A stretch of 32,899 nucleotides of DNA, taken from Pseudomonadota bacterium (lineage in GTDB: Bacteria > Pseudomonadota > Alphaproteobacteria > Rhizobiales > Devosiaceae). Each line of letters opens with the position of its first letter. Within the stretch, counting starts at the first letter, position 1. Positions 5,724 to 30,579 of the stretch are shown in pieces. The notes below the pieces were generated by a model. That model was not told where the DNA came from. It ran no database searches and worked only from the letters and a program-made list of their open reading frames with translations. Position numbers and translations under genes: made by a program. The DNA lies in the NCBI GenBank assembly GCA_023427545.1, contig JAEZBF010000239.1, positions 1-32,899 of the forward strand. Reading direction: 5' to 3'.

Positions 5724-7145
5724 TCAGAACCCGGGCTTCCACTGCACCGACGACTGGCGCGTCAACTCGAGCAGCAGTTCCTGCCCATATCCCGCACCAA
5801 GCCCGCTGGCGCCGACCGGCTCGGACGTGCCGCCCGGTGCCTTGCGCGGTGGGGCGTTGATCTTGATCATCCCCGCGCGGACCTCATGCAGGAACTTCAG
5901 CGACCGCGACGACGAATTAGAGCACAGCACCGCTGCCAGGCCGTAACGGTGGTCGTTGGCGAGCGCCAGCGCCTCGTCGAAGTCGTCGTAGGGCACCACG
6001 GGAGCGACAGGCCCGAACGTCTCGTCCGACATGACGGGCTGGTCGGCGGTCACGCCGGTGATCACCGTCGGCGGATAGAACCAGCCCTTGCGCTCGAGCC
6101 GCGCGCCGCCGGTGTGCACCACCGCGCCCGACGCCACTGATCGATCCACCTGGTCGATGATCTTTTCGAGCTGGATGCGATCGACGATCGGTCCCATCCC
6201 GACATTGTCGAGCAGGCCGTCGCCCTGCACGATCGCCTCGGATTGCCGGGTCAGCGCCGCAACGAACGGTTCGAAAATCTGCCGCGCGACATAGACGCGT
6301 TCGGTGGCGGTGCAGAGCTGGCCGGCGTTGAAGTAGGCCGCGTCGATCGCGAAGGCGGCGGCCTTCTCGACATCGACCGTCTCATCGACGATCAGCGGGT
6401 CCTTGCCGCCCAGTTCGAGGATGACCTTCTTGAGGCTTCGTCCAGCGATCTCGCCGATGCGGCGGCCCGTCGCTTCCGAACCCACGAACAGGATGGCGCT
6501 GACGTCGGGGTGCTGGACGATCGGTTCGCCGGCGCCCGGGCCATTGCCGAGCACGAGGTTCACGACGCCCGGCGGCAGCTTCGAGAACGCCAGTTCCGCG
6601 ATGCGCCGCGAGGTGAGCGGCGTCTTCTCGGACGGCTTCCAAACCACCGTGTTGCCCACGGCAATCGCCGCCGCAACGTTTTCGACTCCCAGCGCCACCG
6701 GGTAATTCCACGGTACGATCACGCCGACCACGCCGCGCGGGAAGCGCTGCTGGAAGTTGAGCTCGCCATAGGCCGCCTGTTGGCTGCCCGCCCGGATGTG
6801 AACGGCGAGCTCGCCGAACTGCCGAGCCGCGCCGGCCGCGCCCGCGATCTCGAGCCGGGAGAGCGAGAGCGGCTTGCCCATCTCGATCGTGTTGAGGCGC
6901 GCCAACTCCTCCTGGTGCGCCATCAGGATGCTGGCGATCTCGTTGAGTGCGGCGCGGCGCGCAACGGGCGCCAGGCCCGACCAGCCCTTGCCCGCGGCAA
7001 GGGCCGCGGCGACCGCCTGGTCGACGTCGTTCCTGCTGCCGCGCGGGATCTGGCCCAGCCGGTCCTCGGTTGCGGGGTTGACGACATCGAGCGCGTCGGT
7101 GCTGTCGGATGGGACGGCGCTGTTGCCGATCCAGTTGGTTTCCAT
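5724..7145 (-). CDS. NAD(P)+-dependent aldehyde dehydrogenase family protein
   Basis: 473 aa with PWNYP, ELGGKDP and the catalytic-Cys context FNAGQLCTATER. It is the last gene of the operon that begins at 9293. Confidence 0.9.
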   Translation of the reverse strand: METNWIGNSAVPSDSTDALDVVNPATEDRLGQIPRGSRNDVDQAVAAALAAGKGWSGLAPVARRAALNEIASILMAHQEELARLNTIEMGKPLSLSRLEIAGAAGAARQFGELAVHIRAGSQQAAYGELNFQQRFPRGVVGVIVPWNYPVALGVENVAAAIAVGNTVVWKPSEKTPLTSRRIAELAFSKLPPGVVNLVLGNGPGAGEPIVQHPDVSAILFVGSEATGRRIGEIAGRSLKKVILELGGKDPLIVDETVDVEKAAAFAIDAAYFNAGQLCTATERVYVARQIFEPFVAALTRQSEAIVQGDGLLDNVGMGPIVDRIQLEKIIDQVDRSVASGAVVHTGGARLERKGWFYPPTVITGVTADQPVMSDETFGPVAPVVPYDDFDEALALANDHRYGLAAVLCSNSSSRSLKFLHEVRAGMIKINAPPRKAPGGTSEPVGASGLGAGYGQELLLELTRQSSVQWKPGF

Positions 7146-7166: not shown

Positions 7167-8081
7167 TTACGCGGCGTCGGTCGGCTTGAGCCGGATTTCG
7201 ACACCCGACTGCGCCTCGAAGAGCCGCATCACCGAACCCATGAAATCTTCGTCGCGATATTTCTGCTCGCTCGTTTCGAGCAGGTCGAGAACCGCTTTGC
7301 CGACCGGCAGGTCGATGCCGAGATCGCGGGCGAGACCCATAGCAAGGCGATGGTCCTTGGCGGCCAACCGCGAGGCAAAGCCCGGCGAATAATCCGCTTT
7401 GAACGCCTTGGATGGCAGCACCATGTTGAGCACCTTGTTGGAGGTACCGGTCTTGTCGGAAAGCGCGATGATCTGCTCGAGCGACACCCCGGACTTGATC
7501 CCGAACGAGGCGCATTCGGCAATGATCGCGACCATGCCCGCCGCAAGGTAGTTGTTGACGAGCTTGATGGTCGTGCCGGCGCCCAAGTCGCCGATGTGCA
7601 TGATCTCGCTCGACATGGCCTCGAGCATCGGGCGCACGTCTTCGAGCGTTGCCTTGTCGCCCCCGACCATGAAGGTCACCGTCCCCTTTTCGGCGTCGGG
7701 CACACCGCGGCCCACCGGGCTGTCGAGCATCCTCACGCCCACCTTGGCGAGTTCGGCTCCGACATGGCGGCTGGTCGTGGGGTCGACCGTGCTGAGGTCG
7801 ACATAGATCAGCCCCTCATGCGCGCCGTCCCTGATCCCGCCCGCTTCGAGTGCAACGCGTCGCACGTCGGGCGCATCCGGCACCATCGTGAAGATGACGT
7901 CGACGTTGCGCGCGAGCTCGGCCGCGCTCGTTGCCGCCTTCGCGCCGCGCGCGACGAAAGCATCGATCGCCGGCTGGGCGACGTCCCACACCGTGAGGTC
8001 GAACCCCTTGCGCAGCAGGTTGCCGGCAAGTCCGCGGCCCATGGCTCCAAGGCCGATGAACCCAATCCGTTTCGCAGCCAC
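7167..8081 (-). CDS. Beta-hydroxyacid dehydrogenase family oxidoreductase (3-hydroxyisobutyrate / tartronate-semialdehyde reductase-like)
   Basis: N-terminal Rossmann motif RIGFIGLGAMGRGLAGNLLRKGFDLTVWD. About 300 aa. GTG start with GGAG 9 nt upstream, inside the end of the preceding gene. Confidence 0.85.
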   Translation of the reverse strand: MAAKRIGFIGLGAMGRGLAGNLLRKGFDLTVWDVAQPAIDAFVARGAKAATSAAELARNVDVIFTMVPDAPDVRRVALEAGGIRDGAHEGLIYVDLSTVDPTTSRHVGAELAKVGVRMLDSPVGRGVPDAEKGTVTFMVGGDKATLEDVRPMLEAMSSEIMHIGDLGAGTTIKLVNNYLAAGMVAIIAECASFGIKSGVSLEQIIALSDKTGTSNKVLNMVLPSKAFKADYSPGFASRLAAKDHRLAMGLARDLGIDLPVGKAVLDLLETSEQKYRDEDFMGSVMRLFEAQSGVEIRLKPTDAA

Positions 8082-8086
8082 TTTGG

Positions 8087-8419
8087 CTACTCCTTGAGAG
8101 AAATGGTAAGCAGCGCCTTGAAGCTCGAGCCCTCGGGCAGGACCGTCATGACGCGGAGGAAAGTGCCGAAGTTGCTGATCCGTGCGCTCGAGACTTCATC
8201 GACGCGCGGCACCGGCATCATGCTGCCCTCGTCGATCCAGCGCATGCCGTCGGGCGAGATCTGCACCCAGGCGCGCGCCTGCTCCGGCGTTCCCTCGGCA
8301 CCAAGCGAGCGCAGGTAGATCACCGCCTCGCTCGCCCAGGCCACGTCGTACGGTTCGCTCGCTGCGACGCCGCTCCAGGTGTCGCCACGCGCGACGACGG
8401 CCGTAATGGACTCACGCAT
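8087..8419 (-). CDS. Hypothetical protein, small partner of the uncharacterised two-gene module (copy A)
   Basis: 110 aa with no signal peptide or TM segment. Its ATG overlaps the stop of the upstream gene by 8 nt (ATGCGTGA). It is a clear paralog of 17689-18027: shared AV(V/I)ARG..W...EPY...WA.EA.I, VQIS.DGMRWIDEG and AR...FG. The conserved MRWIDEG differs from the other copy by one synonymous change (GAC vs GAT). Confidence 0.8.
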   Translation of the reverse strand: MRESITAVVARGDTWSGVAASEPYDVAWASEAVIYLRSLGAEGTPEQARAWVQISPDGMRWIDEGSMMPVPRVDEVSSARISNFGTFLRVMTVLPEGSSFKALLTISLKE

Positions 8420-9293
8420 CTTCCCAGTCTCCCGAAACCAGCACCGAGTCGAGGTAGACGAACGACCGCTTGTTGGTATCGGCCTCCACGGTCCAGCACA
8501 CGTTGAACAAGCAGTTGAGGTTCGGCCACGCTTCCATGTGCATCGGCTCGAGCGTCGAGACGTCGAACTCGCGGTCGTTACACTGCAATGACGTGAAGCT
8601 CATCGAACGCAGGTCGAAGCCCATCTTGAAGTAGTGCCAATTATACTTGGTCGGTACCTCGTTGTAGCAGAGCTGCTGGTTGCCCCACGGGATGTCCTCC
8701 CAGCCGTCGGGGCCGAAGTGGTGGTGCGAGCGGGTCTCTCCCAGCGACTGGTCGCCCCCCACGTCGTGCGCCGTTTCGACCTTGCGCTTGAACTGCCACT
8801 TCTCCTGCCGCTCGCCGTTGAAGGCGTTGAGATAGCGCACGTGCGGCATGATGCGATGATTGTTGTCCTGCAGATCGAGCGCCAGGCCGAACGCCCCCGC
8901 ATCCTTTGCGGACAGCTTCAGGTCCGTCGCTTCCGGCTTCAACGCGAAATAGGTCTCGATCTGGATCGGGCACGCCTTGCGGAACGTGAAGCGCTTGAGC
9001 GCCATGTTCACCGAACGGGCGCGCGGCCGCGAAGCGATCTTGAGGGCATAGGTGCCGTCATGCGCCCCATGGGACCCGGTATCCCAGTGCGTGCCGTTCG
9101 ACAGCATGGGCTGGTTCATGTCCCGAAAGCCGGGCAGCACGTTGTCGAGCGTGTGCTCGTAGTTGCCGACCAACGCCGTGTAGCCGCGGAAGCCCTTCGA
9201 GAACTGGTCGAAGGCGATGATACGGGGCAGGGGGTTGAACTTCGAGAGTTCCGGATCCGTCCAGAACGCTCGATTGGCAGCAGTCGACACCAC
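8412..9293 (-). CDS. Hypothetical protein, large partner of the uncharacterised two-gene module (copy A)
   Basis: 293 aa with a GTG start preceded by GAGGAG. No signal peptide or TM segment. It is rich in aromatic residues and His. By eye roughly half its residues are identical to 16835-17689. Shared blocks: PLPRI, PMLSN.THWD.G.HG, YALK(I/L)A.RP, KPEAT.L.LS, NHR..P.VRYLNA.NGE...KWQ, CYNE.PTK.NWHYF..GFD, LQCND, PNL..LFNV and KR.F.Y.DS.L.SGDW. Confidence 0.85.
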   Translation of the reverse strand: MVSTAANRAFWTDPELSKFNPLPRIIAFDQFSKGFRGYTALVGNYEHTLDNVLPGFRDMNQPMLSNGTHWDTGSHGAHDGTYALKIASRPRARSVNMALKRFTFRKACPIQIETYFALKPEATDLKLSAKDAGAFGLALDLQDNNHRIMPHVRYLNAFNGERQEKWQFKRKVETAHDVGGDQSLGETRSHHHFGPDGWEDIPWGNQQLCYNEVPTKYNWHYFKMGFDLRSMSFTSLQCNDREFDVSTLEPMHMEAWPNLNCLFNVCWTVEADTNKRSFVYLDSVLVSGDWEDA

Positions 9294-9482: not shown

Positions 9483-10349
9483 ATGAGTACACGGGTTCAG
9501 GCCGCGCTGACTGCTGCCGCCGCCGCAATGCGTCCCTCCGAGCGGAAGGTGGCGGCGTTCGTTGCGAACGACCCGCAGGCGGCACTGCGCATGAGCATCT
9601 CGGCGCTCGCCGATGCGGCCGGCGTCAGCGAACCGACCGTCCTGCGGTTCTGCCGCGCCCTTGGCTACAAGGGCTTCATGGATTTCAAGATCAGCGTGGC
9701 GGGCGAACTGGGCGGCGGCACCCCGTTCGTTGACCACGATGTGGCGCCCGGCGATGACGGCAGGGCCGTGGTGGCCAAGCTCTTCGGCTCCTCGGTGCGT
9801 CAGATGACGCGCCTCATCGACACCCTCGACCACGAAGCGCTCGAGCGTGCCGTGGAGGTCATCACCAGCGCGAGCCGCATCGATGTCTGCGGCATCGCAC
9901 AGTCCAACTTCGTTGCGGCCGATCTCCAGCATCGCCTCGCCCGCATGGGGTACCCGGCGATCGCCATGCCGGACGTACACATGCAGTTGCAGGCGGCCGC
10001 CTCCCTCGGGCCGGGCGCCGTTGCGATCGTCATGTCCTTCGCCGGTCAGATCCGCGAAACCCTCGATGTCGCGAGGCAGGCGAGGAGCGTCGGCGCGACC
10101 GTGATCGCCATCACCCGCGGCCGTTCGGCGCTGGCGCGGGAAGCCGACATCGTCATCAATGTCGACAGCGACGAGGCGACGTTCCTCTATGGCTCCTCGG
10201 CAACCCGTTTCGCCCATCTGCTTGCCGTCGACCTGCTCGCCACCCTGATCGCGCTGCGTGGCGGCAAGCCGACTCTCGAGCGGCTCCGGCGCTCCCGACT
10301 CGCCACGCAGGATCGCTGGCTGCCTCAGTCGGACGACACCGGCACCTGA
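9483..10349 (+). CDS. MurR/RpiR-family transcriptional regulator (HTH + SIS sugar-phosphate-sensing domain)
   Basis: N-terminal HTH_6 block ERKVAAFV...ISALADAAGVSEPTVLRFCRALGYKGFMDFK. The SIS-like remainder has (V/I)xGxxxS-type motifs. It is divergent from the 9293 operon. Confidence 0.9.
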   Translation: MSTRVQAALTAAAAAMRPSERKVAAFVANDPQAALRMSISALADAAGVSEPTVLRFCRALGYKGFMDFKISVAGELGGGTPFVDHDVAPGDDGRAVVAKLFGSSVRQMTRLIDTLDHEALERAVEVITSASRIDVCGIAQSNFVAADLQHRLARMGYPAIAMPDVHMQLQAAASLGPGAVAIVMSFAGQIRETLDVARQARSVGATVIAITRGRSALAREADIVINVDSDEATFLYGSSATRFAHLLAVDLLATLIALRGGKPTLERLRRSRLATQDRWLPQSDDTGT

Positions 10350-10378
10350 TCGCGTGCGGACGCAGATGAAAGTACGTT

Positions 10379-11434
10379 TCAGGATTGCAGCTTTCGTCCA
10401 ATCCGCTCCAGCTCCTGGTCGAGAAGTGCCACCACGTCGTCGGACAGGTGCAACCCCTGACTTGCTGCCGCTGCCCGCCGTGCGTGAGCCCCCGGTCCGG
10501 GTAACCGCACAGGCGGCCCGCCGGCGGCCGGCCGCGACGCGCGCACCATCTCGCCGAGCTGCCGCGTGCGCGCCTCGTACTGCTCCAGCCCCATGAATGC
10601 CTTGGGATCGATGACCACGAACACGTGCCCGGCATCGGTGGGCTCCGGGCTCTTGTCGTTCGGGTTCCCCACCATGCGCCCTATGGCTGCGCCCGACAGC
10701 ACGCCGGCCAGCATCTCGACCATCAGCGCCAGGGCCGAGCCCTTGGCTCCGGCCATCGGCAGCAGCGCGCCCTTCATGCCCGCGGCCGGATCGGTAGTGG
10801 CGCTGCCGTCTGGCGCCACGGCCCAGTCCCCCGGGATTGACCGTCCCTCGCGCTGCGCCTGCCGCATCTTGCCGAACGCCGCAACGCTCGTTGCGATGTC
10901 AAACGCCACGGCATTCTCGGGCTCTTTCGCCGGAAAAGCCGCCGCGATCGGATTGGTGCCGAGGATCGGATCTGCACCGCCATGCACGGCCATCGCCGGC
11001 GAGCCGTTGGACGCGGTGAATGCGATGTACCCCGCGTCGGTCGCCCGCTGCAGCAGGTAGCCCGCCGCACCATAGTGGTTGCTGCGCCGCACTGCGGCGA
11101 TGGCGATCCCGGCCTCTGCCGCAGTCGCCATGGCGCGGTCGATCGCCACCGCACCCGCCACGACGCCCATGGCGTTGCCGCCATCGACCAGCAGCACGCC
11201 CGGCCGGGTCTGCTCCACCGCGATCTCCGGCCGCGCCGCGATCTTTCCCCGGCGCAGTGCATCGAGGTACATCGGCGCTCGCGAGACGCCGTGCGACGTT
11301 ACCCCCGACGCCTCTGCATCGGTCAGCCAGTCCGCGCAGAGCTCCGCATCCTCTCGCGGCAATCCCGCATCAACGAACAGCGCCACCAGGGCCTCGGCGA
11401 CAGCTGCAACGGGAAAACTGGCCATGTCTCGCAT
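10379..11434 (-). CDS. Ldh_2-family (malate/L-lactate/sulfolactate dehydrogenase type 2) oxidoreductase
   Basis: Family blocks GVTSHGVSRAPMYL, RRSNHYGAAGYL and ILGTNPIAAAFP. The start is the ATG at 11434 or the ATG at 11425. Confidence 0.85.
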   Translation of the reverse strand: MRDMASFPVAAVAEALVALFVDAGLPREDAELCADWLTDAEASGVTSHGVSRAPMYLDALRRGKIAARPEIAVEQTRPGVLLVDGGNAMGVVAGAVAIDRAMATAAEAGIAIAAVRRSNHYGAAGYLLQRATDAGYIAFTASNGSPAMAVHGGADPILGTNPIAAAFPAKEPENAVAFDIATSVAAFGKMRQAQREGRSIPGDWAVAPDGSATTDPAAGMKGALLPMAGAKGSALALMVEMLAGVLSGAAIGRMVGNPNDKSPEPTDAGHVFVVIDPKAFMGLEQYEARTRQLGEMVRASRPAAGGPPVRLPGPGAHARRAAAASQGLHLSDDVVALLDQELERIGRKLQS

Positions 11435-11543: not shown

Positions 11544-12362
11544 ATGGCCCGCGCCTCCGATCTGGAACTGCCGGAGACCGCTGATCAGAGCGACAGGCAG
11601 ACGCGCTACCGCGTCCCCGCCGTCGACAAGGCTCTGGACATCCTCGAGCTGCTCTCGACCGAGGCCACCGGCCTGCCAATGGCGACCCTGGCGGAGCGGC
11701 TGGGGCGCACCATCAGCGAAATCTACCGCACCGTTCAGCTGCTCGAAGCCCGCGGCTACCTCGAGCGTCACAACGACGGCGACCGCTATGCCGTGACCAT
11801 GAAGCTCTTCCGGCTGGCCCACGCCATGCCGCGCGTTCATTCGCTGACCTCGCATGCCATTCCCATCATGGAGGAGCTCGCCAATCAGATAGAGCAGTCC
11901 TGCCATCTCGCCGTGCTCGACGGCCAGGACATCCTCATCATCGCTCAGGTCGATTCCCCGCTGCCGCGCCAGTACTCCGTGGCCCTCGGCGCCCGCCTGC
12001 CGGTGTGGGAGGCGAGCTCGGCAAACCTGCTGCTCGCCTATCAGCCCGAAGCCAAGCGCGAGGCGCTGTTCCGCTCGCTTGCGCGCACCGTCACCCCCGA
12101 TGCGCTGCAGCAGCTGCGCCAGCGCGTCGCCGAGGTCGTCAGCACCGGCCGCGAGGACCGTGAGAGCTACGTTGTCAGCGGCCTGCTGACCTTCAGCCGC
12201 CCGATCTTCAACCACTTCGGCACCGTCGTCGCTGCCCTGACGGTTCCGTTCCTCCACCACAAGCGCCTCGCCGTCCCGCCGGAGGAGGCGAGCGCACGCC
12301 TCGACGCCGCGGCGCTGCACCTTTCCCGCGAGCTCGGCTACCGCGAGCCGAACGGCGGCTGA
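11544..12362 (+). CDS. IclR-family transcriptional regulator
   Basis: The winged-HTH block is VPAVDKALDILELLS...MATLAERLGRTISEIYRTVQLLEARGYLER. The C-terminal effector domain is about 180 aa. Confidence 0.9.
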   Translation: MARASDLELPETADQSDRQTRYRVPAVDKALDILELLSTEATGLPMATLAERLGRTISEIYRTVQLLEARGYLERHNDGDRYAVTMKLFRLAHAMPRVHSLTSHAIPIMEELANQIEQSCHLAVLDGQDILIIAQVDSPLPRQYSVALGARLPVWEASSANLLLAYQPEAKREALFRSLARTVTPDALQQLRQRVAEVVSTGREDRESYVVSGLLTFSRPIFNHFGTVVAALTVPFLHHKRLAVPPEEASARLDAAALHLSRELGYREPNGG

Positions 12363-12364
12363 GC

Positions 12365-13456
12365 TCAGCCCAGCCGGTTCTGCGTCTTGCTGTCGAAGAG
12401 ATGCAGCCGCGCCGCTTCGAAGTTCAGCGTCAGCGGCTGCCCGGCCTGGAACTGCCCCTTGTCCGTGCAGCGCGCGGTGACGATCGCCTCGCCCGCCTTG
12501 ACGGTCACGAGGATGTCGCTGCCGAGCGGCTCGAGCATGTCGATGACGCCGTCGATGTGACCCGCTGCGCCCGGCACCGGCACGTCGCTCAGGTGCTCGG
12601 GGCGTAGCCCCGCGAGCACATCGCCGCCGGCGGGAACCTGGGGCAGGGGCGTCCCTGCCGGCAGCACGATCCGCCCACCGCCGGCGAGCGAGAGGATGGG
12701 CCGGTCGCCGTCCATTCCTCGCGTCGCCGGCAGGATGTTCATCGTCGGCGAACCGATGAACTCCGCCACGAAGACATTGGCCGGCCGGTCGAACAGGTCG
12801 TGCGGCGTGCCCACCTGCGCGATGTGCCCGTCCAGCAGGCAGATGATCCGGTCCGCCAGCGTCATCGCCTCGAGTTGGTCGTGCGTTACGTACATGCTCG
12901 TTGTCTTGAGCGACTGGTGCAGCCGCTTGATCTGCCCGCGCATCTCAGCGCGCAGCTTGGCATCGAGGTTCGAGAGCGGTTCGTCGAAGAGGAAGAGCCG
13001 CGGCTTGCGGACCATGGCGCGGCCGATCGCGACGCGCTGGCGCTGGCCGCCCGAAAGCTCCCGCGGCCGCCGATGGAGAAGATGGCCGATCTGCAGGATG
13101 TCCGCGACCCGCTTGACCTGCGCCGCCCGCTCCTCCTTGGGCACCTTGGCGAGCTCGAGCGAGAAGCCGATGTTCTGCTCCACGCTCATGTGCGGATAGA
13201 GCGCGTAGTCCTGGAACACCATCGCGACCTGCCGCTCCTTGGGCGACAGTTCGTTGACGCGAACGGTCCCCATGCGCAGCTCGCCGCCCGAGATCTCCTC
13301 GAGGCCAGCGACCATGCGCAGGATCGTGCTCTTGCCGCAGCCCGACGGGCCGACGAGCACGAGGAACTCTCCCTCCTCGATGTCGAAGCTGATGTCGTGC
13401 ACGACCTCGAGATTGCCGTACCGCTTGACGAAGCGATCAACACTGATGGCGGCCAC
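12365..13456 (-). CDS. Sugar ABC transporter ATP-binding protein (MalK/UgpC/MsiK type)
   Basis: Walker A GPSGCGKST, signature LSGGQRQRVAIGRA, Walker B LFLFDEPLSNLD. It has a C-terminal MalK-type regulatory (TOBE-like) extension. Confidence 0.92.
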   Translation of the reverse strand: MAAISVDRFVKRYGNLEVVHDISFDIEEGEFLVLVGPSGCGKSTILRMVAGLEEISGGELRMGTVRVNELSPKERQVAMVFQDYALYPHMSVEQNIGFSLELAKVPKEERAAQVKRVADILQIGHLLHRRPRELSGGQRQRVAIGRAMVRKPRLFLFDEPLSNLDAKLRAEMRGQIKRLHQSLKTTSMYVTHDQLEAMTLADRIICLLDGHIAQVGTPHDLFDRPANVFVAEFIGSPTMNILPATRGMDGDRPILSLAGGGRIVLPAGTPLPQVPAGGDVLAGLRPEHLSDVPVPGAAGHIDGVIDMLEPLGSDILVTVKAGEAIVTARCTDKGQFQAGQPLTLNFEAARLHLFDSKTQNRLG

Positions 13457-13473
13457 GGGGATTTCCTTTCAAC

Positions 13474-14349
13474 TCAGCCCTTCACCGAACCGGCGGTGAG
13501 GCCGGCGATGAGGAATCTCTGGGCGAACATCACCAGCAGGGTGACGGGCAGGAGCTGCACCGTCACGCCGGCAAAGAGCACGCCGAAGTTGGTGCCGCTC
13601 ACCGAGTCCATCACTTCCGAAATGATGAGCGGTGCGGTCTTGGCATGCTGCGTCGTGAAGATCAGCGCGAACAGGTACTCGTTCCACGAGAAGATGAAGA
13701 CGAAGATGGCGCAGGCAGCGACGCCCTGCAGCGCCAGCGGAAAGATCACCCGGACCAGCGACTGCAGCGAGGTCGCGCCGTCGACGATCGCCGCTTCATC
13801 CAGCGTGCGGGGGATCTTGTCGATGAACGTCTTCATGATCATCGTGCACATCGAGACCCAGAAGGCGGCGTAGAGCACGATGAGCACGATGTGGGTGTCG
13901 CTGAGCTTGAGCGCATCGACGAGCGGAAACAGCGGCAGCGTCACCACGATGGGTGGCAGCAGTCGGATGGCGATCAGGTAGATCACCGATCCGGCTAGGA
14001 ACCGGCTGCTGTAGCGCGAATAGACGAACCCCGCGAGGATTGCCGCAATGCAGGCGAGCCCTGTCGCACCCGCGGCGATGATCAGGCTGTTGAGCAGCGT
14101 CGGGAAAAATCCGTCCCACTTGGTGACGAGCGCAACGTAGTGCTCCAGCGTCGGCGTGAAGATCACGCTGGGCGGGAACCGGAAGATTTCCTTCTGCGGC
14201 TTGAACGACGACACCACGATGTAAAGGATCGGGAACGCCGACCATACGATCAGCAGCGCGAACAGCGCCGTGCGAATGACGGCGCGGACCGCGCCGGCAG
14301 CGCGCCGCGCCGCCATGTTCGGAAGCTCGATGGGCGCAAGGTCAGTCAT
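13474..14349 (-). CDS. Carbohydrate ABC transporter permease (MalG-like)
   Basis: Six predicted TM stretches. EAA loop PRTLDEAAIVDGATSLQSLVRVIFPL. Paralog of 21455-22282. Confidence 0.9.
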   Translation of the reverse strand: MTDLAPIELPNMAARRAAGAVRAVIRTALFALLIVWSAFPILYIVVSSFKPQKEIFRFPPSVIFTPTLEHYVALVTKWDGFFPTLLNSLIIAAGATGLACIAAILAGFVYSRYSSRFLAGSVIYLIAIRLLPPIVVTLPLFPLVDALKLSDTHIVLIVLYAAFWVSMCTMIMKTFIDKIPRTLDEAAIVDGATSLQSLVRVIFPLALQGVAACAIFVFIFSWNEYLFALIFTTQHAKTAPLIISEVMDSVSGTNFGVLFAGVTVQLLPVTLLVMFAQRFLIAGLTAGSVKG

Positions 14350-15214
14350 TTCCCTTGAGCATCCTTCTGTGCATTGCCCAGAGGTAGACCGATGCGATCA
14401 GCAGCGAGCCGATGACCATCAGCCAGCCGGTCGCCGAGGCGGCGCCGAAATCCCCGCTGCGGAATGCGCTCTGGTAGAGGAACAGCGCCAGCACTTCCGT
14501 CAGCCGCGCCGGACCGCCGCCCGTCAGCAGGTAGACCTCCGAAAACAGGCGGAAGGCGAACACGAAGCGGAAGATCAGCGAGATCAGGATCGCCGGGATC
14601 GTGAGCGGCAGCGTGATGCGCCAGAATTCCTGCCAGCGCGTCGAGCCATCGATGCGCGCCGCTTCATACAGCGACTTCGGCACGGCCAGCATCCCTGCGT
14701 AGATGAGCAGGAAGGTGAACGGCAGGTGGTGCCAGATCGAGATCAGTGTTGTGATCCCCAGCGCCAGCGGCGGCGAGATCGTCCAGTTGATCATCCCCAG
14801 GCCCATGCTCTCGAAGGTGCGCGAAAGGACGCCGCTTCCTGGGGTGAGCATGATCTTCCAGATCAGCACGCCCACCACTTCTGAGATCGCGTAGGGCATC
14901 AGGATGATCGCGAACATCAGCTTGGGATAGCGAACGCCGCCCAGGAACAGGACGGCCATGCCGATCGCGATGAAGAGCTCGATGTAGACGATGGCGTTGA
15001 CCACGATGACCGTGTTGAGCGCCGCCCGCCAGAAATAGGGGCTGCTCAGGACGTCGGCATAGTTCTGCAAGCCGACGAAAGTCAGGTGCGAGCCGTAGGT
15101 GGACTCGTTGAGGCTGAGCCAGAACACATAGAGCGACGGCAGGGCGATCGCCGACAGCAGCAGGAAATGGGTCGGCACCAGCATGAGCAGGGCCGCCGGA
15201 TTGAGACGCCGCAT
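14342..15214 (-). CDS. Carbohydrate ABC transporter permease (MalF-like)
   Basis: EAA loop PKSLYEAARIDGSTRWQEFWRITLPL. It overlaps the downstream permease by 8 nt. Paralog of 22275-23141. Confidence 0.9.
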   Translation of the reverse strand: MRRLNPAALLMLVPTHFLLLSAIALPSLYVFWLSLNESTYGSHLTFVGLQNYADVLSSPYFWRAALNTVIVVNAIVYIELFIAIGMAVLFLGGVRYPKLMFAIILMPYAISEVVGVLIWKIMLTPGSGVLSRTFESMGLGMINWTISPPLALGITTLISIWHHLPFTFLLIYAGMLAVPKSLYEAARIDGSTRWQEFWRITLPLTIPAILISLIFRFVFAFRLFSEVYLLTGGGPARLTEVLALFLYQSAFRSGDFGAASATGWLMVIGSLLIASVYLWAMHRRMLKGND

Positions 15215-15285
15215 GTCAGTCTATCCCGCTGCACGAAAAGGGTCTGCCGCACCCGAGGGCGCGGCAGACCGGTTCAATACGATGG

Positions 15286-16551
15286 TTACTTCGACTTGGC
15301 GACCAGCGCCTCGGCGCGGGTCTGCAGGTCCTGGGCGGCCTGCTCCGGGGTCTTGAGGCCCAGCAGCGCCGAATGCATCTCCTCGAGGAAGATGGTCGTC
15401 GCTTCGACCGCACCGTCGAATGCCGGCACCGCGATGGAGGCATCGCGCAGGCCGGTGGCTTCGGCAGCCGCGTACGGGAGCTTCTCGACGATCCGCGGAT
15501 CCTCGTAGGCACCCGGACGCACCGGACCGTTGCCGTTCAACGCTGCGCGGACGGTGGCGTCCTTGCTCGACAGCTCGCGGATCAGGTCGAAGGCGAGTTC
15601 CTTCTGCTTGGAGTTGGCCGGAATGGCCCACGACCAGAACTCGGTGTTCGCCGCCGACTTGCCCGGCTCGTTGGTCGGATAGGGGATCGCGAGGATCTGG
15701 CCAGGGTACTGCGAGGCGGCCGGATCGTTCAGTGCGGTGTAGCGCGCGAACGGGTTGATCGCGAATGCACCGCGGCCTTCACGCATCGTGGCGATCAGCT
15801 GGTCGAGGCTGTAGGTCGTCGCGTTGGGCGGGATGACGCCTTCCTGGTGCAGCTTGGCCAGTTCGGTCAGGCCGGCGATCATCTCGGGCGAGTTCGCATG
15901 CACGCTCAGGTCGGGCGCGATGTAGGTCGCCCCGAACGCGCTGAGGAACTGCAGCGGCGTCACGTGCGTCTCGGCGGTGATGATCAGGCCGTTGACGCGG
16001 GTGCCGTCGTCACGGGTGAAGGTGGTGTCGCGGATCGCCTTGAGCAGCTCGTCCAGCGTGGTCGGAACGGCAACGCCGCGCTCTTCCAGGATCGCCTTGT
16101 TGTAGAGCAGGGCGTTCGTCGCGTGACGATAGGGGATGGCAACGCGCTTGCCGTCGATCACGGTCGCATCGAGCAGACCCTTCGAGATGCCCTCGAGGTC
16201 CTCGATCGGGTTGGCTGCATTCAGCGGGTCCAGCGGCTCGAGCAGGTTGGCGACGCTGGGAATGACGCGGGTGTTGAGCACCGCGGCCAGATCGATGCTG
16301 GTCTCGCCCAGGCTCATCTCGCGCAGCAGGCGATCGTGCAGCGGTCCGATGTCGAGCGTGATCCAGTTCAGGGTGACGTTGTTCTTCTTGGCCCACTCGC
16401 CGGCGATGTCCTGCGCAGTGGCGAGGTCGCCGCCGGTCGCGGCGGTCTTGTGCACGTTATGCGAAATGATGGTCAGGGTTCGCTGCTCCTGAGCAGCCGC
16501 GCTTCCCATCGCGGCCACCACGAAGGCGGCGGCCAGGAACTTCTTGAGCAT
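15286..16551 (-). CDS. Extracellular solute-binding protein, family 1 (sugar ABC transporter)
   Basis: Signal peptide MLKKFLAAAFVVAAMGSAAAQE. 421 aa. It is the first gene of the SBP-permease-permease-ATPase operon and a paralog of 23214-24467 (shared LHDRL.REM.LG, NGNG.VRP.AY.DPRIVEK). Confidence 0.9.
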   Translation of the reverse strand: MLKKFLAAAFVVAAMGSAAAQEQRTLTIISHNVHKTAATGGDLATAQDIAGEWAKKNNVTLNWITLDIGPLHDRLLREMSLGETSIDLAAVLNTRVIPSVANLLEPLDPLNAANPIEDLEGISKGLLDATVIDGKRVAIPYRHATNALLYNKAILEERGVAVPTTLDELLKAIRDTTFTRDDGTRVNGLIITAETHVTPLQFLSAFGATYIAPDLSVHANSPEMIAGLTELAKLHQEGVIPPNATTYSLDQLIATMREGRGAFAINPFARYTALNDPAASQYPGQILAIPYPTNEPGKSAANTEFWSWAIPANSKQKELAFDLIRELSSKDATVRAALNGNGPVRPGAYEDPRIVEKLPYAAAEATGLRDASIAVPAFDGAVEATTIFLEEMHSALLGLKTPEQAAQDLQTRAEALVAKSK

Positions 16552-16834: not shown

Positions 16835-17689
16835 ATGACCATCAGCACCGCTGTCGCGCCGCGACCTGATCTCAACCTCAGTCGCTTCGATCCGCTGCCG
16901 CGCATCATGTTCTACGACGACTTCAACAACGGCATGTCTGGGTGGAACGAGCTCCTCGGCAACTACACCGGCAGCCTGCGCAGGATGCACCCCGGCTACA
17001 GGCAGTTCACCCCGCCCATGCTGAGCAACATCACCCACTGGGATGGTGGCACGCACGGCGGGCTGACCGGCTCCTACGCGCTCAAGCTCGCAACGCGTCC
17101 CGGCCGCGGCTCACAGACCGTCAGCCTCAAGCGCATGACGTTCCCGCGTGCCTGCACGATGCAGCTCGAGTGCTTCTTCACCTTCAAGCCAGAAGCCACC
17201 GAGCTCGAGCTCTCCGACAGGGACGTGCGCTCCTGGGGCGTGGTCCTCGACATCCAGGACAAGAACCATCGCGTGCTGCCGCAGGTCCGCTACCTCAACG
17301 CGCTCAATGGCGAGCTGCAGAACAAGTGGCAGTACAAGGAAGAGAGCGTGAAGTTCAACGACGTGGGGGATCGGACCGTCACGATCTACCACTACGGCGA
17401 GGAGAACTGGAAGGATATCCCCGGCGGGCACCAGCTGATCTGCTACAACGAGATTCCGACCAAGATCAATTGGCACTATTTCCGCTTGGGCTTCGACGTC
17501 CATAAGCTGCGTTACACCGAGCTGCAGTGCAACGACCTGGTGCTCGACATCTCCGATCTTGGCACCCTCAAGTTCGACGCGATGCCGAACCTGCAGAACC
17601 TCTTCAACGTCATTCCGTTCGTCGACACCGACTCCGACAAGCGCGCCTTCCTCTACTTCGACTCCATTCTGCTGTCGGGAGACTGGTAA
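16835..17689 (+). CDS. Hypothetical protein, large partner of the uncharacterised two-gene module (copy B)
   Basis: The track ORF starts at a TTG (16787). The ATG at 16835 (MTISTAVAPRPDLNLSRFDPLPRI) aligns with the N-terminus of copy A. About 284 aa, ending ...SILLSGDW*. See 8412-9293 for the shared blocks. Confidence 0.85.
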   Translation: MTISTAVAPRPDLNLSRFDPLPRIMFYDDFNNGMSGWNELLGNYTGSLRRMHPGYRQFTPPMLSNITHWDGGTHGGLTGSYALKLATRPGRGSQTVSLKRMTFPRACTMQLECFFTFKPEATELELSDRDVRSWGVVLDIQDKNHRVLPQVRYLNALNGELQNKWQYKEESVKFNDVGDRTVTIYHYGEENWKDIPGGHQLICYNEIPTKINWHYFRLGFDVHKLRYTELQCNDLVLDISDLGTLKFDAMPNLQNLFNVIPFVDTDSDKRAFLYFDSILLSGDW

Positions 17690-18027
17690 TGCTGGCAGAA
17701 AGCTACACCGCCGTCATCGCGCGCGGCGAGGACTGGATCAACGGCTCCGCCACCGAGCCCTACGAGGCGAGCTGGGCACGCGAGGCGATCATCGTCGTGC
17801 GCACGCTCGAAACCGGCACGCTCGGCGGTGGCGCCAGGGCGCATGTGCAGATCTCGCTCGACGGCATGCGCTGGATCGATGAGGGCACGAGCCTCGAGAT
17901 CAAGCCCGAAGTGGACGGGCTCAGCATGGCGCGCCTCACCCATTTCGGACATTACATCCGCCTGCGCGCCGAAATGCCCCAAGGCATGACCGGCTACATG
18001 CTCGCGACCCTCCAGCTCAAGGCCTGA
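17689..18027 (+). CDS. Hypothetical protein, small partner of the uncharacterised two-gene module (copy B)
   Basis: 112 aa (MLAESYTAVIARGEDW...). The start ATG overlaps the upstream TAA by 1 nt (TAATG). The track ORF 17527-18027 has an N-terminal extension that overlaps the large gene out of frame. Paralog of 8087-8419. Confidence 0.8.
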   Translation: MLAESYTAVIARGEDWINGSATEPYEASWAREAIIVVRTLETGTLGGGARAHVQISLDGMRWIDEGTSLEIKPEVDGLSMARLTHFGHYIRLRAEMPQGMTGYMLATLQLKA

Positions 18028-18029: not shown

Positions 18030-19822
<1,793 letters not shown>

Positions 19823-20735: not shown

Positions 20736-21449
20736 CTAGGTGGCCGGGCTGTGCACGGCGAGGACTTCGAGCAGGTCGGTCAGCCGGCCAAGCACGTGGT
20801 CCGGCTTGGCCGCGAGCAGGGGACCCGTCAACTCGTCGACCTGGTGGGCCGCCCCCAGATAGGCCGCAACCCGCATCCCCGCCGCACGGCCCGCCTTGAG
20901 CCCGAAGAGGCTGTCCTCGACCACGAGGCACTGCGCGGGCGGTACACCCATCAGCTCGGCCGCCAGCAGGAACACGTCGGGTTGCGGTTTGGGCACCCCG
21001 ACATCGAGCGCCGATACGATCCGCGGTCCGAAATACGCCAGCAGCCCTGTTGAGCGCAGCATGTGGATCACGCGCTGCCGCGGCGAGTTGGAGACCATGC
21101 AGAACGGCACCGGCATCGCCGCGAGCACCTCGCGCGCATCCGGCACAGGGCGCAGGTCGGTGGCGCAACGCCGGTTGAACTCGCTTTCGATCGCGTCGAA
21201 TACCGCCGGTCCGATCTCGATGCCCGAGCGCGCTGAAAGATCGGCGATCAGCTGCGGATAGCGCACGCCGTTGTAGCGGACCGCCAGCTCCCGCGCGGTG
21301 CAGGCGATGCCCAGCGCCGAAAAGTTTCGCTGGCGCACGTCGTGCATCAGCTCTTCGCTCTCCAGCAGCGTGCCGTCGCAGTCGAACAGCACCAGCCGTA
21401 TCTCTTCGGCCTTGGGCTGGTGCGGCCAGATGCGGCCAGCCCCGTCCAT
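20736..21449 (-). CDS. HAD-superfamily hydrolase, subfamily IA (phosphatase / beta-phosphoglucomutase-like)
   Basis: 237 aa from the ATG at 21449. Motif I LFDCDGTLLESE, motif II MVSNS, motif III KPQPDVF, motif IV VVEDSLFGLKAGRAAG. The upstream 259 codons of track ORF 20736-22226 overlap the permease gene out of frame. Confidence 0.85.
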   Translation of the reverse strand: MDGAGRIWPHQPKAEEIRLVLFDCDGTLLESEELMHDVRQRNFSALGIACTARELAVRYNGVRYPQLIADLSARSGIEIGPAVFDAIESEFNRRCATDLRPVPDAREVLAAMPVPFCMVSNSPRQRVIHMLRSTGLLAYFGPRIVSALDVGVPKPQPDVFLLAAELMGVPPAQCLVVEDSLFGLKAGRAAGMRVAAYLGAAHQVDELTGPLLAAKPDHVLGRLTDLLEVLAVHSPAT

Positions 21450-21454
21450 GGCCG

Positions 21455-22282
21455 CTAACCCTTCACCGCGCCGGCCGTGAGACCGGCAACCAGGAACCGC
21501 TGCAACCCCAGCACCACCAGCACAATCGGCACCAGCTGGATCGTCGCTGCCGAAAACAGAATCCCGTAATTTGTGCCCGTCACCGAATCCATTAGCTCGC
21601 TGAGAATGAGCGGCGTCGTCTTGGCGTTCTGGATCGTGAAGATGAAGGCGTAGAGATACTCGTTCCAAGAGAACACGAAGACGAACACCGCGCAGGCGAC
21701 CATGCCCTGGATGGCGAGCGGCGCCACGACATAGCGCAGGATCTGCGCTTCGCTCGCGCCATCCACCGACGCGGACTCGTCGAGATCGCGCGGGATCTGG
21801 TCGATGAACTCCTTCATCACCAACACGTTCAGCGGCACCCAGAAGGTGGCGTAGAGCAGGATGAGGATCAGGTGCGTGTCGGCAAGCCCGAACTGGTTCA
21901 CCCATGGGAAAAGCGGAATGGTGACGACGAGCGGCGGCAGCAGGCGGATCGCCACGAGATAGAAGGCGGATGCCGAAAGCGCGTCGTTGCGGAAGCGCGA
22001 ATAGACGTAGCCCGCGCAGGCTCCCGCGAACACCGACAGCAGCGTCGCTAGGATCGAGATGGCGAGGCTGTTTCCGACGAACCGGAAGAAGTCGCCGTTC
22101 TGCGTCGCCAGCTCGATGTAGTTGTCGAGCGTCGGTTCGAACAGCAGCGGCGGTGGGAACATGAAGATGTCGCGCTGGAACTTGAACGAGTTCATCACGA
22201 CGTAGGCGACCGGAAAGACCGACCACACCACGATCAGCACGATGGCGATCGCCTTCAGGGCGCTGGAGACGGGCCTACTCAT
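21455..22282 (-). CDS. Carbohydrate ABC transporter permease (MalG-like), second system
   Basis: EAA loop PRDLDESASVDGASEAQILRYVVAPL. The C-terminal block FTIQNAKTTPLILSELMDSVTGTNYGILFSAATIQLVP...AGLTAGAVKG is nearly collinear with the 13474-14349 product. Confidence 0.9.
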   Translation of the reverse strand: MSRPVSSALKAIAIVLIVVWSVFPVAYVVMNSFKFQRDIFMFPPPLLFEPTLDNYIELATQNGDFFRFVGNSLAISILATLLSVFAGACAGYVYSRFRNDALSASAFYLVAIRLLPPLVVTIPLFPWVNQFGLADTHLILILLYATFWVPLNVLVMKEFIDQIPRDLDESASVDGASEAQILRYVVAPLAIQGMVACAVFVFVFSWNEYLYAFIFTIQNAKTTPLILSELMDSVTGTNYGILFSAATIQLVPIVLVVLGLQRFLVAGLTAGAVKG

Positions 22283-23141
22283 TGGAAAAGGATTTCCGGT
22301 ACATCGAACGCAGGTAGAACACCGACAGGAACAGGGCTCCCAGCACCATCAGCCAGCCGGTGGCCGCCGCGCCACCGAAATCGGAGAAGCTGAACCCGGT
22401 GCGATAGAGGTAGGTGCCCAGCACCTCGGTCAGCCGGACCGGGCCGCCCTTGGTCACCAGCCAGACTTCCGTGAACATGCGGAAGGCGAAGATGTAGCGG
22501 AAGACGATCGCCAGCATCGCCGCCGGAATGATCAGCGGAATGGTGATGTTGAGCGTCTGCTGCCACGCGTTCGCGCCATCCACGCGCGCCGCTTCGTAGA
22601 GTTCGCGCGGCACCGAGATGACCGCTGCGTAGATGATCACGAAGGTGAAGGGCAGGTGGTGCCATGTCGAAATCGTGCAGATCAGCGCGAGCGCGTCGCC
22701 GACGTTGCGCGTCCAGTTGAACGTGATGCCGAGCGATGCAAGGCCCTTGGTGATGACGCCGATATTGGGATCGGCAAGGAAGCGCCACGAGAGCACGCCC
22801 ACCACCTCGCTGATGCCGTAGGGCACGAGGATGACGGCGAACAGCAGCATGCGGCCGCGGTTGAGGCTCGCGACCAGCACCGCCATGCCGAAGGCGAGCA
22901 GCAGCTCGACATAGACGACGATGTTGACGATCAGGAACGTGTTCCACGACGCGCGCCAGAACACGCCGTCGGTGAGCACTTTTGCGTAGTTGGCGAGCCC
23001 GACGAACTGCGGGTCCAGGCCGTAGTTCGAGGTCGTGAAGCTCAGCCAGAAGACATAGAGCGCCGGCGCGGCCAGCATCGCAGTTGCAAGCGCCTGCGCC
23101 GGCGCCAGCAACATGAGGTGGAAGAAGCCTAGTCGGCGCAT
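22275..23141 (-). CDS. Carbohydrate ABC transporter permease (MalF-like), second system
   Basis: EAA loop PRELYEAARVDGANAWQQTLNITIPL. It overlaps the next permease by 8 nt. Confidence 0.9.
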   Translation of the reverse strand: MRRLGFFHLMLLAPAQALATAMLAAPALYVFWLSFTTSNYGLDPQFVGLANYAKVLTDGVFWRASWNTFLIVNIVVYVELLLAFGMAVLVASLNRGRMLLFAVILVPYGISEVVGVLSWRFLADPNIGVITKGLASLGITFNWTRNVGDALALICTISTWHHLPFTFVIIYAAVISVPRELYEAARVDGANAWQQTLNITIPLIIPAAMLAIVFRYIFAFRMFTEVWLVTKGGPVRLTEVLGTYLYRTGFSFSDFGGAAATGWLMVLGALFLSVFYLRSMYRKSFSNE

Positions 23142-23213
23142 GTGGTCTCGCGTCGTGTAACAGCAGTCGAAACAAAAGAAGCGCGGCAGCGAACTGCCGC
23201 GCGTCCGGGAGGG

Positions 23214-24467: not shown

Positions 24468-24589
24468 GGCTGTCTCCCTCGTAGGATTGCTAGTGACGGT
24501 CCCGGGCCCCGGCCGCCCCGTGCTCGCAAACCGCTCTGCAGCAGGAAGGACGTCTACCTGGATTGGTGCCGTGCGCGTGTACCGCGCAT

Positions 24590-24604
24590 CGATATCGTTA
24601 ATGT
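24590..24604 (-). promoter_or_regulatory. Candidate LacI-family operator half/site (ACATTAACGATATCG on the minus strand)
   Basis: 14 of 15 nt are identical to ACATTAACGCTATCG at 25935-25949. It is oriented toward the minus-strand SBP operon and contains the CGATATCG palindrome. Confidence 0.4.
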
Positions 24605-24806
24605 TGATCTTGCACGCAGTTGTTGCGGCGTCAAGGTCTGGAGGTCAGCATTGATTTCATTGACAATTTCTGCCAAACCCAGCCGCTCTTTACAGCGCAG
24701 GCTCAGTTCAACAATGGTAACGGTAATGACTGTGGGCCAGCGAATGGGCCGATTGGCTGGGGTGCGCCGCACCGGTAAACTGGTCGCCTCGATTGGAGAA
24801 CGGTGA

Positions 24807-25865: not shown

Positions 25866-25934
25866 CCTCTCACAAATACATGAGCGTTATCGCAACCTTG
25901 TACGTTGACGCCTCACAGTGGAGCGTGGCAGGGG

Positions 25935-25955
25935 ACATTAACGCTATCGTTTAAT
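25935..25955 (+). promoter_or_regulatory. Candidate LacI-family operator (ACATTAACGCTATCGTTTAAT)
   Basis: Imperfect palindrome ATTAACG-ctat-CGTTTAAT, about 20 nt upstream of the GTG at 25974. It shares its left half with the site at 24590-24604. Confidence 0.4.
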
Positions 25956-25973
25956 GACAGGACTGACCCTCAG

Positions 25974-27347: not shown

Positions 27348-27397
27348 TCTCGCAAGGCGGGCACACTGCCAGCCTTGCACGGAAGCATGAGACGACC

Positions 27398-29046: not shown

Positions 29047-29060
29047 ACGGAGCAACCTCA

Positions 29061-30514: not shown

Positions 30515-30579
30515 CCGGGCAAGCTCGTTCGCGAAGGTGGACCGGCCGCACTCGGGTGCCCGGTCCTTCTTCGCCTAAC

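Follow-up and report, generated by a model that had tools for sequence, protein, structure and literature searches.

The stretch of DNA analysed here, 32,899 nucleotides of contig JAEZBF010000239.1 from an alphaproteobacterial (Devosiaceae) genome assembly (GCA_023427545.1) and referred to below as the window, carries two copies of a pair of adjacent genes, which encode one large and one small protein. In copy A (positions 8,087 to 9,293), the large open reading frame (ORF) of 293 residues starts with GTG and has a GGAG motif 3 to 6 nt upstream, and the small ORF of 110 residues starts with an ATG placed within the final codons of the large gene (GAAGATGCGTGAG). The junction of the two genes reads ...GGGAGACTGGGAAGATGCGTGAG, with an overlap of 8 nt (ATGCGTGA) and a GGGAG motif just upstream of the small ATG. 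Both the ORF list and a reading of the DNA confirm these overlapping frames with GTG and ATG starts, which had been described in an initial annotation made from the sequence alone. As also stated there, the pair leads an operon, the small gene being followed after 5 nt by a gene for a HIBADH-type dehydrogenase and this, after 21 nt, by a gene for an aldehyde dehydrogenase (ALDH).

Copy B, the second, diverged pair already noticed in the initial annotation, is located on the opposite strand, 7.5 kb from copy A, and spans positions 16835-18027. Its large gene encodes 284 residues and starts, by our reading of the DNA, with the ATG at 16835, in favour of which a TTG at 16787 was set aside. It is joined to the small gene of 112 residues by a TAATG stop/start with an overlap of 1 nt. 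The large proteins of copies A and B are 50% identical (E 3e-110), and the small proteins are 46% identical (E 2e-34). None of the four proteins contains a transmembrane-like or signal-peptide-like hydrophobic segment, the maximal Kyte-Doolittle means over 19 residues being 0.5 to 1.1, and judged by their sequences, the large and small proteins look cytoplasmic, as had been proposed.

Conservation of the gene pair across phyla

The pair is a real, ancient, self-contained, and translationally coupled two-gene unit, whose association goes beyond chance. At least 524 species genomes, counting one genome per species, encode a relative of the large protein. We retrieved 80 loci, in which the pairs were found by hidden Markov model searches of six-frame ORFs. 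These loci span the Caldilineaceae and other Chloroflexota, Poribacteria, Latescibacterota, Gemmatimonadota, Spirochaetota, Acidobacteriota, Armatimonadota, Firmicutes, and Alpha-, Beta-, and Gammaproteobacteria, and the pair is found in at least ten phyla. Apart from large genes truncated at a contig end, practically all have a homologue of the small gene beside them. Once start codons had been refined, 74 of 82 pairs showed the small gene immediately downstream of the large one, and 66 of these 74 have a spacing of -8 to +2 nt. The remaining 8 pairs, which belong to Caldilineaceae or Litorilinea, have the small gene upstream, either adjacent or one gene apart. The survey therefore supports the earlier claim that the pair is co-conserved as a unit across phyla.

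The pairing is kept in a 35%-identical actinobacterial homologue from Nonomuraea and in the divergent second copy of a Spirochaetota genome. On annotated plasmids of Chelatococcus, Roseomonas, Rhizobium, and Terrarubrum, PGAP lists the pair as a "DUF6772 family protein" and a "hypothetical protein." Two copies per locus are also present in Mesorhizobium sp. Z1-4 and in a metagenome-assembled genome (MAG) of Devosia ginsengisoli, which is the closest relative of the window, being syntenic with about 79 to 84% nucleotide identity. In loci L006 and L099, the two genes stand alone, which fits a self-contained function. Natural large-small fusions, which the initial annotation had raised alongside adjacency, are absent from every homologue match list, including that of a search of 1.84 billion proteins; the long profile matches considered as candidate fusions (P0175, P0176, P0205, and P0258) are chimeric or frame-shifted gene calls.

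Locus L060 of a Spirochaetota genome holds two convergent pairs (9608-11173 and 12671-14055) at a distance of 1.5 kb, where one of the large proteins scores 235 bits versus about 500. The whole module has therefore been duplicated repeatedly in evolution, the window being another case.

Family membership and predicted folds

Both large proteins match the Pfam family DUF6772 (PF20562) over profile positions 6-284 of 284, with scores (Table 1) far above the gathering score of 27 bits, and PGAP names their homologues accordingly. DUF6772 is the sole family reported for both large copies in a Pfam scan at E values up to 1, and NCBIfam has no model for the large protein. The large family is already catalogued as a domain of unknown function, a known unknown with no characterised member, and as far as we found, its description does not include an obligate small partner.

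The small proteins stay under the gathering score of 26.8 bits of DUF6385 (PF19912), reaching 16.3 and 16.9 bits (E 0.01 and 0.007). Scanned singly, 53 of 55 diverse homologues of the small protein match this family below the threshold, with a best E value of 4.3e-7, and the match spans their central V-Q-I-S-P-D-G-x-x-W-x-D-E-G region. Because of these matches, the sequence evidence points to the small protein as a divergent relative or sister group of DUF6385 by remote homology, and not as a member; DUF6385 is itself uncharacterised. The profile searches of Pfam, NCBIfam, and the PDB place neither protein in a characterised family, so that the initial annotation was right in calling both uncharacterised, the large one being a DUF6772 protein and the small one having no family above the threshold. 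Neither DUF6772 nor DUF6385 is mentioned in the literature we searched, and a combination of generic terms also gave nothing relevant.

For the four pair proteins, PHROGs and PADLOC yield no families at E values up to 0.1. A single-sequence PDB match named "Cake10" was rejected as a designed-repeat artefact without a qualifying stretch. Looking up the exact sequence of the window protein in the assembly index gave no entry. Relations of the large family to the small family and to the PL14 lyase of a neighbouring locus were likewise discarded, with hhalign probabilities of less than 1% in both cases.

The large protein is 50 to 57% identical among Proteobacteria, Chloroflexota, Poribacteria, and others, and the family has 42 invariant columns, many of which are charged or aromatic. 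The invariant set includes K100-R101-x-T103, E113, K119-P-E-A, R147/H151/R153, W166-Q167, H190-x-H192, Y210-N-E212, K216, N218-W219, Y221, R276, and D282-S283. The small protein is about 40 to 50% identical, with the invariant core E-P...W-A...D-G..W...G...F. Residues 185-204 of the large protein (window positions ~8682-8741, reverse strand) form a near-invariant loop, G-K-T-x-S-H-x-H-L-A-P-x-G-W-E-D-x-P-G-G, whose HxH motif (H190 and H192) looks metal-binding and has a superficial likeness to cupin motif 1; the loop is lacking in the most divergent family members, P0183 and P0232. A cupin of the KduI/KdgF type was rejected, the motif G-x5-H-x-H-x3,4-E-x6-G being found in 0 of 117 large sequences and the Glu position not being conserved.

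AlphaFold2 models were built on the family alignments and compared with the PDB using Foldseek. The large protein is predicted to be all-beta (pLDDT 90, pTM 0.90). It has 80 PDB matches with an E value of at most 1e-3, all being lectin, GH16, or X122-type jelly rolls with a probability of 1.0, at E values of about 1e-5 to 1e-4, TM scores of 0.3 to 0.5, and identities of 8 to 15%. The matches include TtX122B (PDB ID 8q2a), the carbohydrate-recognition domains of Emp46p/Emp47p and ERGIC-53, legume lectins, GH16 enzymes, and calreticulin. The model thus assigns the large protein, at the fold level only, to the concanavalin-A-like lectin/glucanase superfold. The initial annotation had suggested a jelly roll of the LamG, GH16, or 3-keto-disaccharide hydrolase type, of which the concanavalin-A-like fold stands, whereas the three families fall away at the sequence level: Glyco_hydro_16 gives no match at E values up to 1 and the window protein lacks its E-x-D-x(x)-E motif, and neither DUF1080 (PF06439, 3-keto-disaccharide hydrolase) nor LamG matches either large copy at E values up to 1.

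The top Foldseek match, X122 (E 7e-6), is a beta-jelly roll like the large protein, at 8 to 11% identity and TM scores of 0.40 to 0.48, and a conserved patch on the concave sheet, as in the X122, Cip1, and PL20 jelly rolls, is probable for the large protein too. However, X122 domains are secreted and bind Ca, belong to multidomain redox proteins, and lack a small partner. The authors who described the X122 domain relate it to Cip1 and PL20 lyases and found neither activity nor binding (PMC10916295). The L-type lectins (Emp46p/Emp47p, ERGIC-53, and the legume lectins) have the concanavalin-A-like fold in common with the large protein, at 8 to 11% identity and with no sequence similarity. Emp46p/Emp47p and ERGIC-53 are lumenal cargo receptors of eukaryotes and do not catalyse a reaction; the small protein with which ERGIC-53 works, MCFD2, is an EF-hand protein and not a beta-sandwich. 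The GH16 (PDB IDs 4w65, 5dxd, and 6t2s among the matches) and DUF1080 enzymes share the superfold and act on carbohydrates, but they are single-chain and mostly secreted or periplasmic proteins.

The small protein is predicted to fold into eight strands (pLDDT 95), and its Foldseek matches are generic jelly-roll beta-sandwiches only, with TM scores of at most 0.59. These comprise a protease C-terminal domain, a GOLD domain, TNF-like lectins, PirA, several carbohydrate-binding modules (CBMs), phage XepA/YomS, and spore-appendage jelly rolls. An F5/8-type-C (PF00754, CBM32) domain, as the initial annotation had proposed for the small protein, was not specifically supported: none of 55 members matches PF00754 at E values up to 1, none of the Foldseek top 50 is of this type, and the profile of the small family finds nothing among PDB sequences better than E 0.2, with CBM32-like segments (7nit and 2ls6) at E 0.2 to 0.47. 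The 8-stranded beta-sandwich is shared with CBM32 and other CBMs, three of which (8xmz, 2y64, and 2zez) are in the Foldseek list, but CBMs are normally fused to their enzyme, whereas the small protein is encoded by a separate, overlapping gene. For both proteins, the structure searches yield fold-level matches only.

Catabolic surroundings of the pair

The genes of the two operons and their neighbours in the window are listed in Table 1.

Table 1. Features of the window around the two gene pairs and in the second import cluster
Feature	Position	Strand	Assignment
ALDH, NAD(P)-dependent, operon A gene 4	5724..7145	-	Aldedh, E 5e-140; no equivalog-level assignment
Beta-hydroxyacid dehydrogenase (tartronate-semialdehyde/sulfolactaldehyde reductase-like), operon A gene 3	7167..8081	-	NAD_binding_2 and NAD_binding_11
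Small protein, copy A	8087..8419	-	Predicted 8-stranded beta-sandwich (AlphaFold2); sub-threshold DUF6385 relative, E 0.01
Large protein, copy A	8412..9293	-	Pfam DUF6772 (PF20562), E 1.4e-112, 376.1 bits; predicted concanavalin-A-like beta-jelly roll
RpiR/HexR-type regulator, divergent from operon A	9483..10349	+	HTH_6 and SIS
Ldh_2-family 2-hydroxyacid dehydrogenase (sulfolactate/ureidoglycolate dehydrogenase-like)	10379..11434	-	Ldh_2, E 1e-108; NCBIfam matches under cutoff
IclR-type regulator (KdgR/PcaR-like)	11544..12362	+	Family match
CUT1-type ATP-binding cassette (ABC) importer, whole	12365..16551	-	SBP_bac_1/8; UgpC/MalK-like ATPase
Importer ATPase	12365..13456	-	
Importer permease	13474..14349	-	
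Importer permease	14342..15214	-	
Importer solute-binding protein (SBP)	15286..16551	-	
Large protein, copy B	16835..17689	+	DUF6772 (PF20562), E 9e-112, 373.4 bits
Small protein, copy B	17689..18027	+	46% identical to small protein A; TAATG junction
HpcH/HpaI-family class II aldolase (2-keto-3-deoxy-acid aldolase-like), operon B gene 3	18030..18824	+	HpcH_HpaI, E 3e-35
Aldo/keto reductase (AKR), operon B gene 4	18821..19822	+	Aldo_ket_red, E 3e-72; 4-nt overlap with aldolase gene
496-residue protein, second import cluster	20736..22226		C-terminal HAD; N-terminal ~275 residues without Pfam match
Second CUT1 SBP, second import cluster	23214..24467		
LacI regulator, second import cluster	24807..25865		
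FAD oxidoreductase, second import cluster	25905..27347		PF12831
Metallophosphoesterase, HAD hydrolase, and two-domain ABC ATPase, second import cluster	within 20736..31434		

The best NCBIfam and PDB matches of the operon A dehydrogenase are tartronate semialdehyde reductase, HIBADH, and sulfolactaldehyde reductase, all under the equivalog cutoffs. The aldolase gene of operon B starts 2 nt after the small gene, and its product is nearest to HpaI, KDR aldolase, and GarL, again under the cutoffs. None of the catabolic enzymes of the window reaches an NCBIfam equivalog cutoff, all neighbour functions being family-level assignments, and therefore the enzymes do not name the substrate. The solute-binding protein of the importer has remote PDB relatives only (sugar, polyol, and sulfoquinovosyl glycerol binders, best E 1e-20), and the permeases align to the PF00528 genes of locus L007. 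No kinase is encoded in the catabolic island of the window. The divergent placement of an RpiR/HexR-type regulator recurs in the loci of Mesorhizobium sp. Z1-4, where a solute-binding-protein gene comes after the HIBADH gene, and Ldh_2 genes also adjoin the pair in loci L001, L011, and L013.

For the other loci, neighbours within 5 kb were counted using six-frame ORFs and single-sequence phmmer panels, which gives lower bounds, many contigs being short. Parts of ABC importers are found near the pair in at least 58 of 98 loci, and those read are of the CUT1 type (SBP_bac_1 and two permeases) or the Opp/Dpp type. NAD(P) oxidoreductases are found in at least 49, MR_MLE proteins (enolase superfamily, acid-sugar-dehydratase-like) in at least 25, and sugar-type regulators in at least 24 of the 98 loci, with RpiR, IclR, GntR, and LacI recurring. 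Both the window and its relatives show sugar or sugar-acid catabolism plus ABC import, in line with the sugar or sugar-acid pathway considered in the initial annotation. Other neighbours are specific for clades: SMP30 or Amidohydro_2 lactonases, PhyH dioxygenases, IolE-like TIM barrels, GFO/IDH/MocA oxidoreductases, sulfatases, and D-cysteine-desulfhydrase-like pyridoxal phosphate (PLP) enzymes, the types of neighbourhood tracking the clades of the large-protein tree. Examples are GntR | MR_MLE-permease-permease-pair-SDR in Chelatococcus and Terrarubrum (SDR, short-chain dehydrogenase/reductase), SDR-SMP30-ABC | MR_MLE-pair in Rhizobium sp. Q54, and one locus with the polysaccharide lyases PL5 and PL8, a TonB receptor, IclR, the pair, a major facilitator superfamily transporter, an SDR, an esterase, and SMP30.

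A search for linked genes by unbiased ORF clustering, Pfam annotation, and a 36-family panel showed the small gene to be the only universal neighbour of the large gene; neither the clustering nor the panel revealed a third gene linked in all loci. We dropped the notion of a dehydrogenase invariably supplied by the pair, because an oxidoreductase is encoded directly downstream in only about 14 of 85 cases. Glycoside hydrolases of recognised families are largely missing from the clusters, which would leave the cleavage step to be filled, and polysaccharide lyases near the pair are rare (2 of about 95 loci). In 19 loci, two permease genes directly precede the pair, and several of these operons contain no ATPase gene. 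In the alphaproteobacterial loci L091, L092, L095, and L100, the pair stands directly before or after two permease genes in an operon without an ATPase gene. Such operons presumably use a shared MsiK-type ATPase.

An unannotated family of about 480 to 530 residues, which has no Pfam match and several paralogues per locus (23 to 29% mutual identity), is located near the pair in 23 of 84 loci, from Caldilineaceae and Poribacteria, and directly upstream of the pair in L101. Its members include L003:17666-19207, L003:19204-20646, L003:486-2072, L024:7633-9159, and L101:6776-8326, and they may be unannotated glycosidase-like proteins. The PLP enzyme L090:6028-7056 and its equivalents in L056, L071, L075, L083, and L098, from betaproteobacterial and Armatimonadota loci, belong to the group of D-cysteine desulfhydrase, D-cysteate sulfo-lyase (CuyA), and 1-aminocyclopropane-1-carboxylate deaminase, with scores under the equivalog cutoffs. 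Their genes are next in operon order to that of the acid-sugar-dehydratase-like MR_MLE protein, just upstream of the pair. In a Rubrivivax MAG (L075:11001-14167), the pair is followed downstream by genes for an AstE/aspartoacylase-like deacylase, a 277-residue protein that looks like a myo-inositol oxygenase by its motifs but has no NCBIfam match, and a PIG-L/BshB1-like deacetylase, which hints at a substrate of the N-acetyl-aminosugar-inositol type in that clade.

Interpretation of the pair and remaining genes of the window

The obligate linkage, the strong constraint on both proteins, the confident folds, the cytoplasmic look, the catabolic context, and the stand-alone occurrence lead us to favour, with a probability of roughly 0.4, that the pair is an obligate heteromeric, cytoplasmic, cofactor-independent carbohydrate-active enzyme, which would act on an imported glycoside, oligomer, or sugar-acid derivative. 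CUT1 and Opp-type importers usually carry oligomers. The choice of an enzyme is based on these oligomer-type importers, on the recognised glycosidases being mostly missing, and on the superfold, which is used by GH16 and several polysaccharide-lyase families. We infer that the large and small proteins would be two subunits of one cytoplasmic complex, in which the concave sheet of the large subunit might form the substrate cleft, lined by the invariant Arg, Lys, His, Tyr, Glu, Asp, and Asn residues. The beta-sandwich of the small protein could be an accessory subunit that the complex requires, translational coupling keeping its amount equal to that of the large subunit. A glycoside, oligosaccharide, or sugar-acid derivative would be taken up by the neighbouring CUT1 or Opp-type importer, and the complex would cleave or rearrange a C-O bond in it in the manner of a glycoside hydrolase or an eliminase. 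In the window, the HIBADH-type, AKR, ALDH, and Ldh_2 enzymes could then reduce or oxidise a carbonyl-bearing product, which the HpcH aldolase might split into pyruvate and a C3 aldehyde in a non-phosphorylative route.

Several observations weigh against an enzyme of this kind. The large-family profile has no match among 177,635 PDB sequences even at an E value of 10, all 347 matches of a profile search of 1.84 billion representative proteins are members of the pair family or fragments, and the Pfam and NCBIfam scans of the four proteins report no characterised enzyme, only DUF6772 and weak DUF6385 matches. The structural matches are weak by TM score and contain as many non-catalytic lectins as enzymes, the top one, X122, itself being without activity or binding, and the GH16 catalytic motif occurs in only 2 of 117 members of the large family. 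Some neighbourhoods look amino-acid-related (PALP, Asp/Glu racemase, AstE-like, and RidA proteins), and their heterogeneity sits oddly with near-invariant putative active-site residues. Finally, candidate glycosidases are not entirely missing, as GH127 and the unannotated family of about 500 residues are present in some clusters.

Tentatively, DUF6772 and its partner could be the founding two-subunit enzyme family made of two lectin-type beta-sandwiches, isolated in sequence and present in at least ten phyla, with carriers among sponge symbionts (Poribacteria and Caldilineaceae) and soil Proteobacteria. Such a family might represent, for example, a new intracellular glycoside- or uronide-cleaving class or a new keto-deoxy-acid-processing activity. 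The literature searched does not appear to describe the strict pairing of DUF6772 with a DUF6385-like protein, the folds of the two proteins, how widely they are distributed, or their importer-linked catabolic context. If the pair is an enzyme, it is a new family, unrelated by any recognisable sequence similarity to characterised proteins, and probably fills an annotation gap in several hundred catabolic clusters linked to ABC importers, including those of uncultured sponge symbionts, whose carbohydrate metabolism is inferred from annotation only. The strict two-gene architecture offers an immediate experimental handle, and the Devosia-type locus of the window, with two diverged copies and a compact set of dehydrogenases and aldolase, is convenient for finding the substrate.

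A rather unlikely alternative is that the complex processes the anomer or ring form of a sugar, as a mutarotase or by ring opening, similar to GalM, FucU, RhaM, NanM, or KdgF. It would hand the right anomer or the open chain of an imported sugar or keto-deoxy acid to the next dehydrogenase, aldolase, or dehydratase. The pair is bound to no single downstream chemistry, being found with sugar 1-dehydrogenase-like SDRs, SMP30 and Amidohydro_2 lactonases, MR_MLE proteins, and HpcH aldolases, and a shared head-group chemistry would account for its high conservation across very different operons. Oxidative sugar clusters, such as those of the non-phosphorylative L-fucose and L-rhamnose pathways, hold a mutarotase in a comparable position, and the near-invariant His and Glu residues of the large protein would also fit. 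However, the pair has no Pfam similarity to Aldose_epim, RbsD_FucU, or rhamnose mutarotase, and to our knowledge, a heteromer with a concanavalin-A fold is not among the known mutarotases, which are single small or single-chain proteins. An identity of more than 50% over about 400 residues would be unusual for an accessory, non-essential activity, and the oligomers typical for the adjacent importers speak against monosaccharides as the cargo.

Compared with the carbohydrate-active enzyme favoured above, an enzyme acting on 2-keto-3-deoxy (4-hydroxy-2-oxo) sugar acids or unsaturated uronates is unlikely. It would be a non-homologous stand-in for KduI/KdgF-type isomerases, keto-deoxy-acid dehydratases, or diketo-acid hydrolases. 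MR_MLE immediately adjoins the pair in many proteobacterial loci, in the order MR_MLE-(perm-perm)-pair-SDR, but it is present in only about a quarter of the loci. By their scores, the adjacent SDRs resemble KduD, gluconate 5-dehydrogenase, or rhamnose dehydrogenase, and the regulators are KdgR-like IclR and HexR-like RpiR proteins, but these enzyme names are based on sub-threshold family matches. The HpcH aldolase directly follows copy B, and a carboxylate substrate would be in keeping with the abundance of invariant Arg and Lys residues. The locus with PL8 and PL5 lyases shows no KduI or GH88 in view; against this, such lyases are as rare as noted above. Only 7 of 84 loci encode, close to the pair, the ALDH that a keto-deoxy dehydratase route needs, and the KduI/KdgF cupin motif is absent from all 117 sequences.

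It is similarly doubtful that the pair is a non-catalytic, lectin-like module, which would sense or sequester a ligand in the cytoplasm or modulate the ABC importer or local regulator. The strongest structural matches are indeed non-catalytic lectins (Emp46/47, ERGIC-53, and legume lectins), followed by X122, for which no activity was found, and ERGIC-53 with MCFD2 is a precedent for a lectin with a small partner. The position directly after two permease genes in 19 loci, several without an ATPase gene, and the heterogeneous catabolic neighbours would also agree with such a role. On the other hand, each cluster already has a dedicated regulator, we know of no cytoplasmic lectin-type regulators of ABC importers in bacteria, the pair is also found away from any transporter, and the invariant charged and His residues are more numerous than in a typical simple binding site. 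If the pair is of this type, an importer-linked cytoplasmic sugar-binding complex would also be new.

An artefact, such as chance ORFs in a GC-rich window (about 65% GC, with many spurious long ORFs), a remnant of a phage or of a toxin, such as a PirA-like binary one (suggested by PirA, phage XepA/YomS, and the spore-appendage jelly rolls in the Foldseek list of the small protein), or chance neighbours, is excluded by the hundreds of conserved homologues of each protein, the near-universal adjacency, the confident models, the metabolic operons, and the lack of PHROG or PADLOC matches.

Elsewhere in the window, two ORFs, 3442-4494 (reverse strand, 350 residues) and 30556-31434 (forward strand, 292 residues), have no Pfam family at E values up to 1e-5, and each is overlapped by an ORF on the opposite strand, making the gene calls uncertain. 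A second import cluster, which looks unrelated to the pair, is located at positions 20736-31434 (Table 1).

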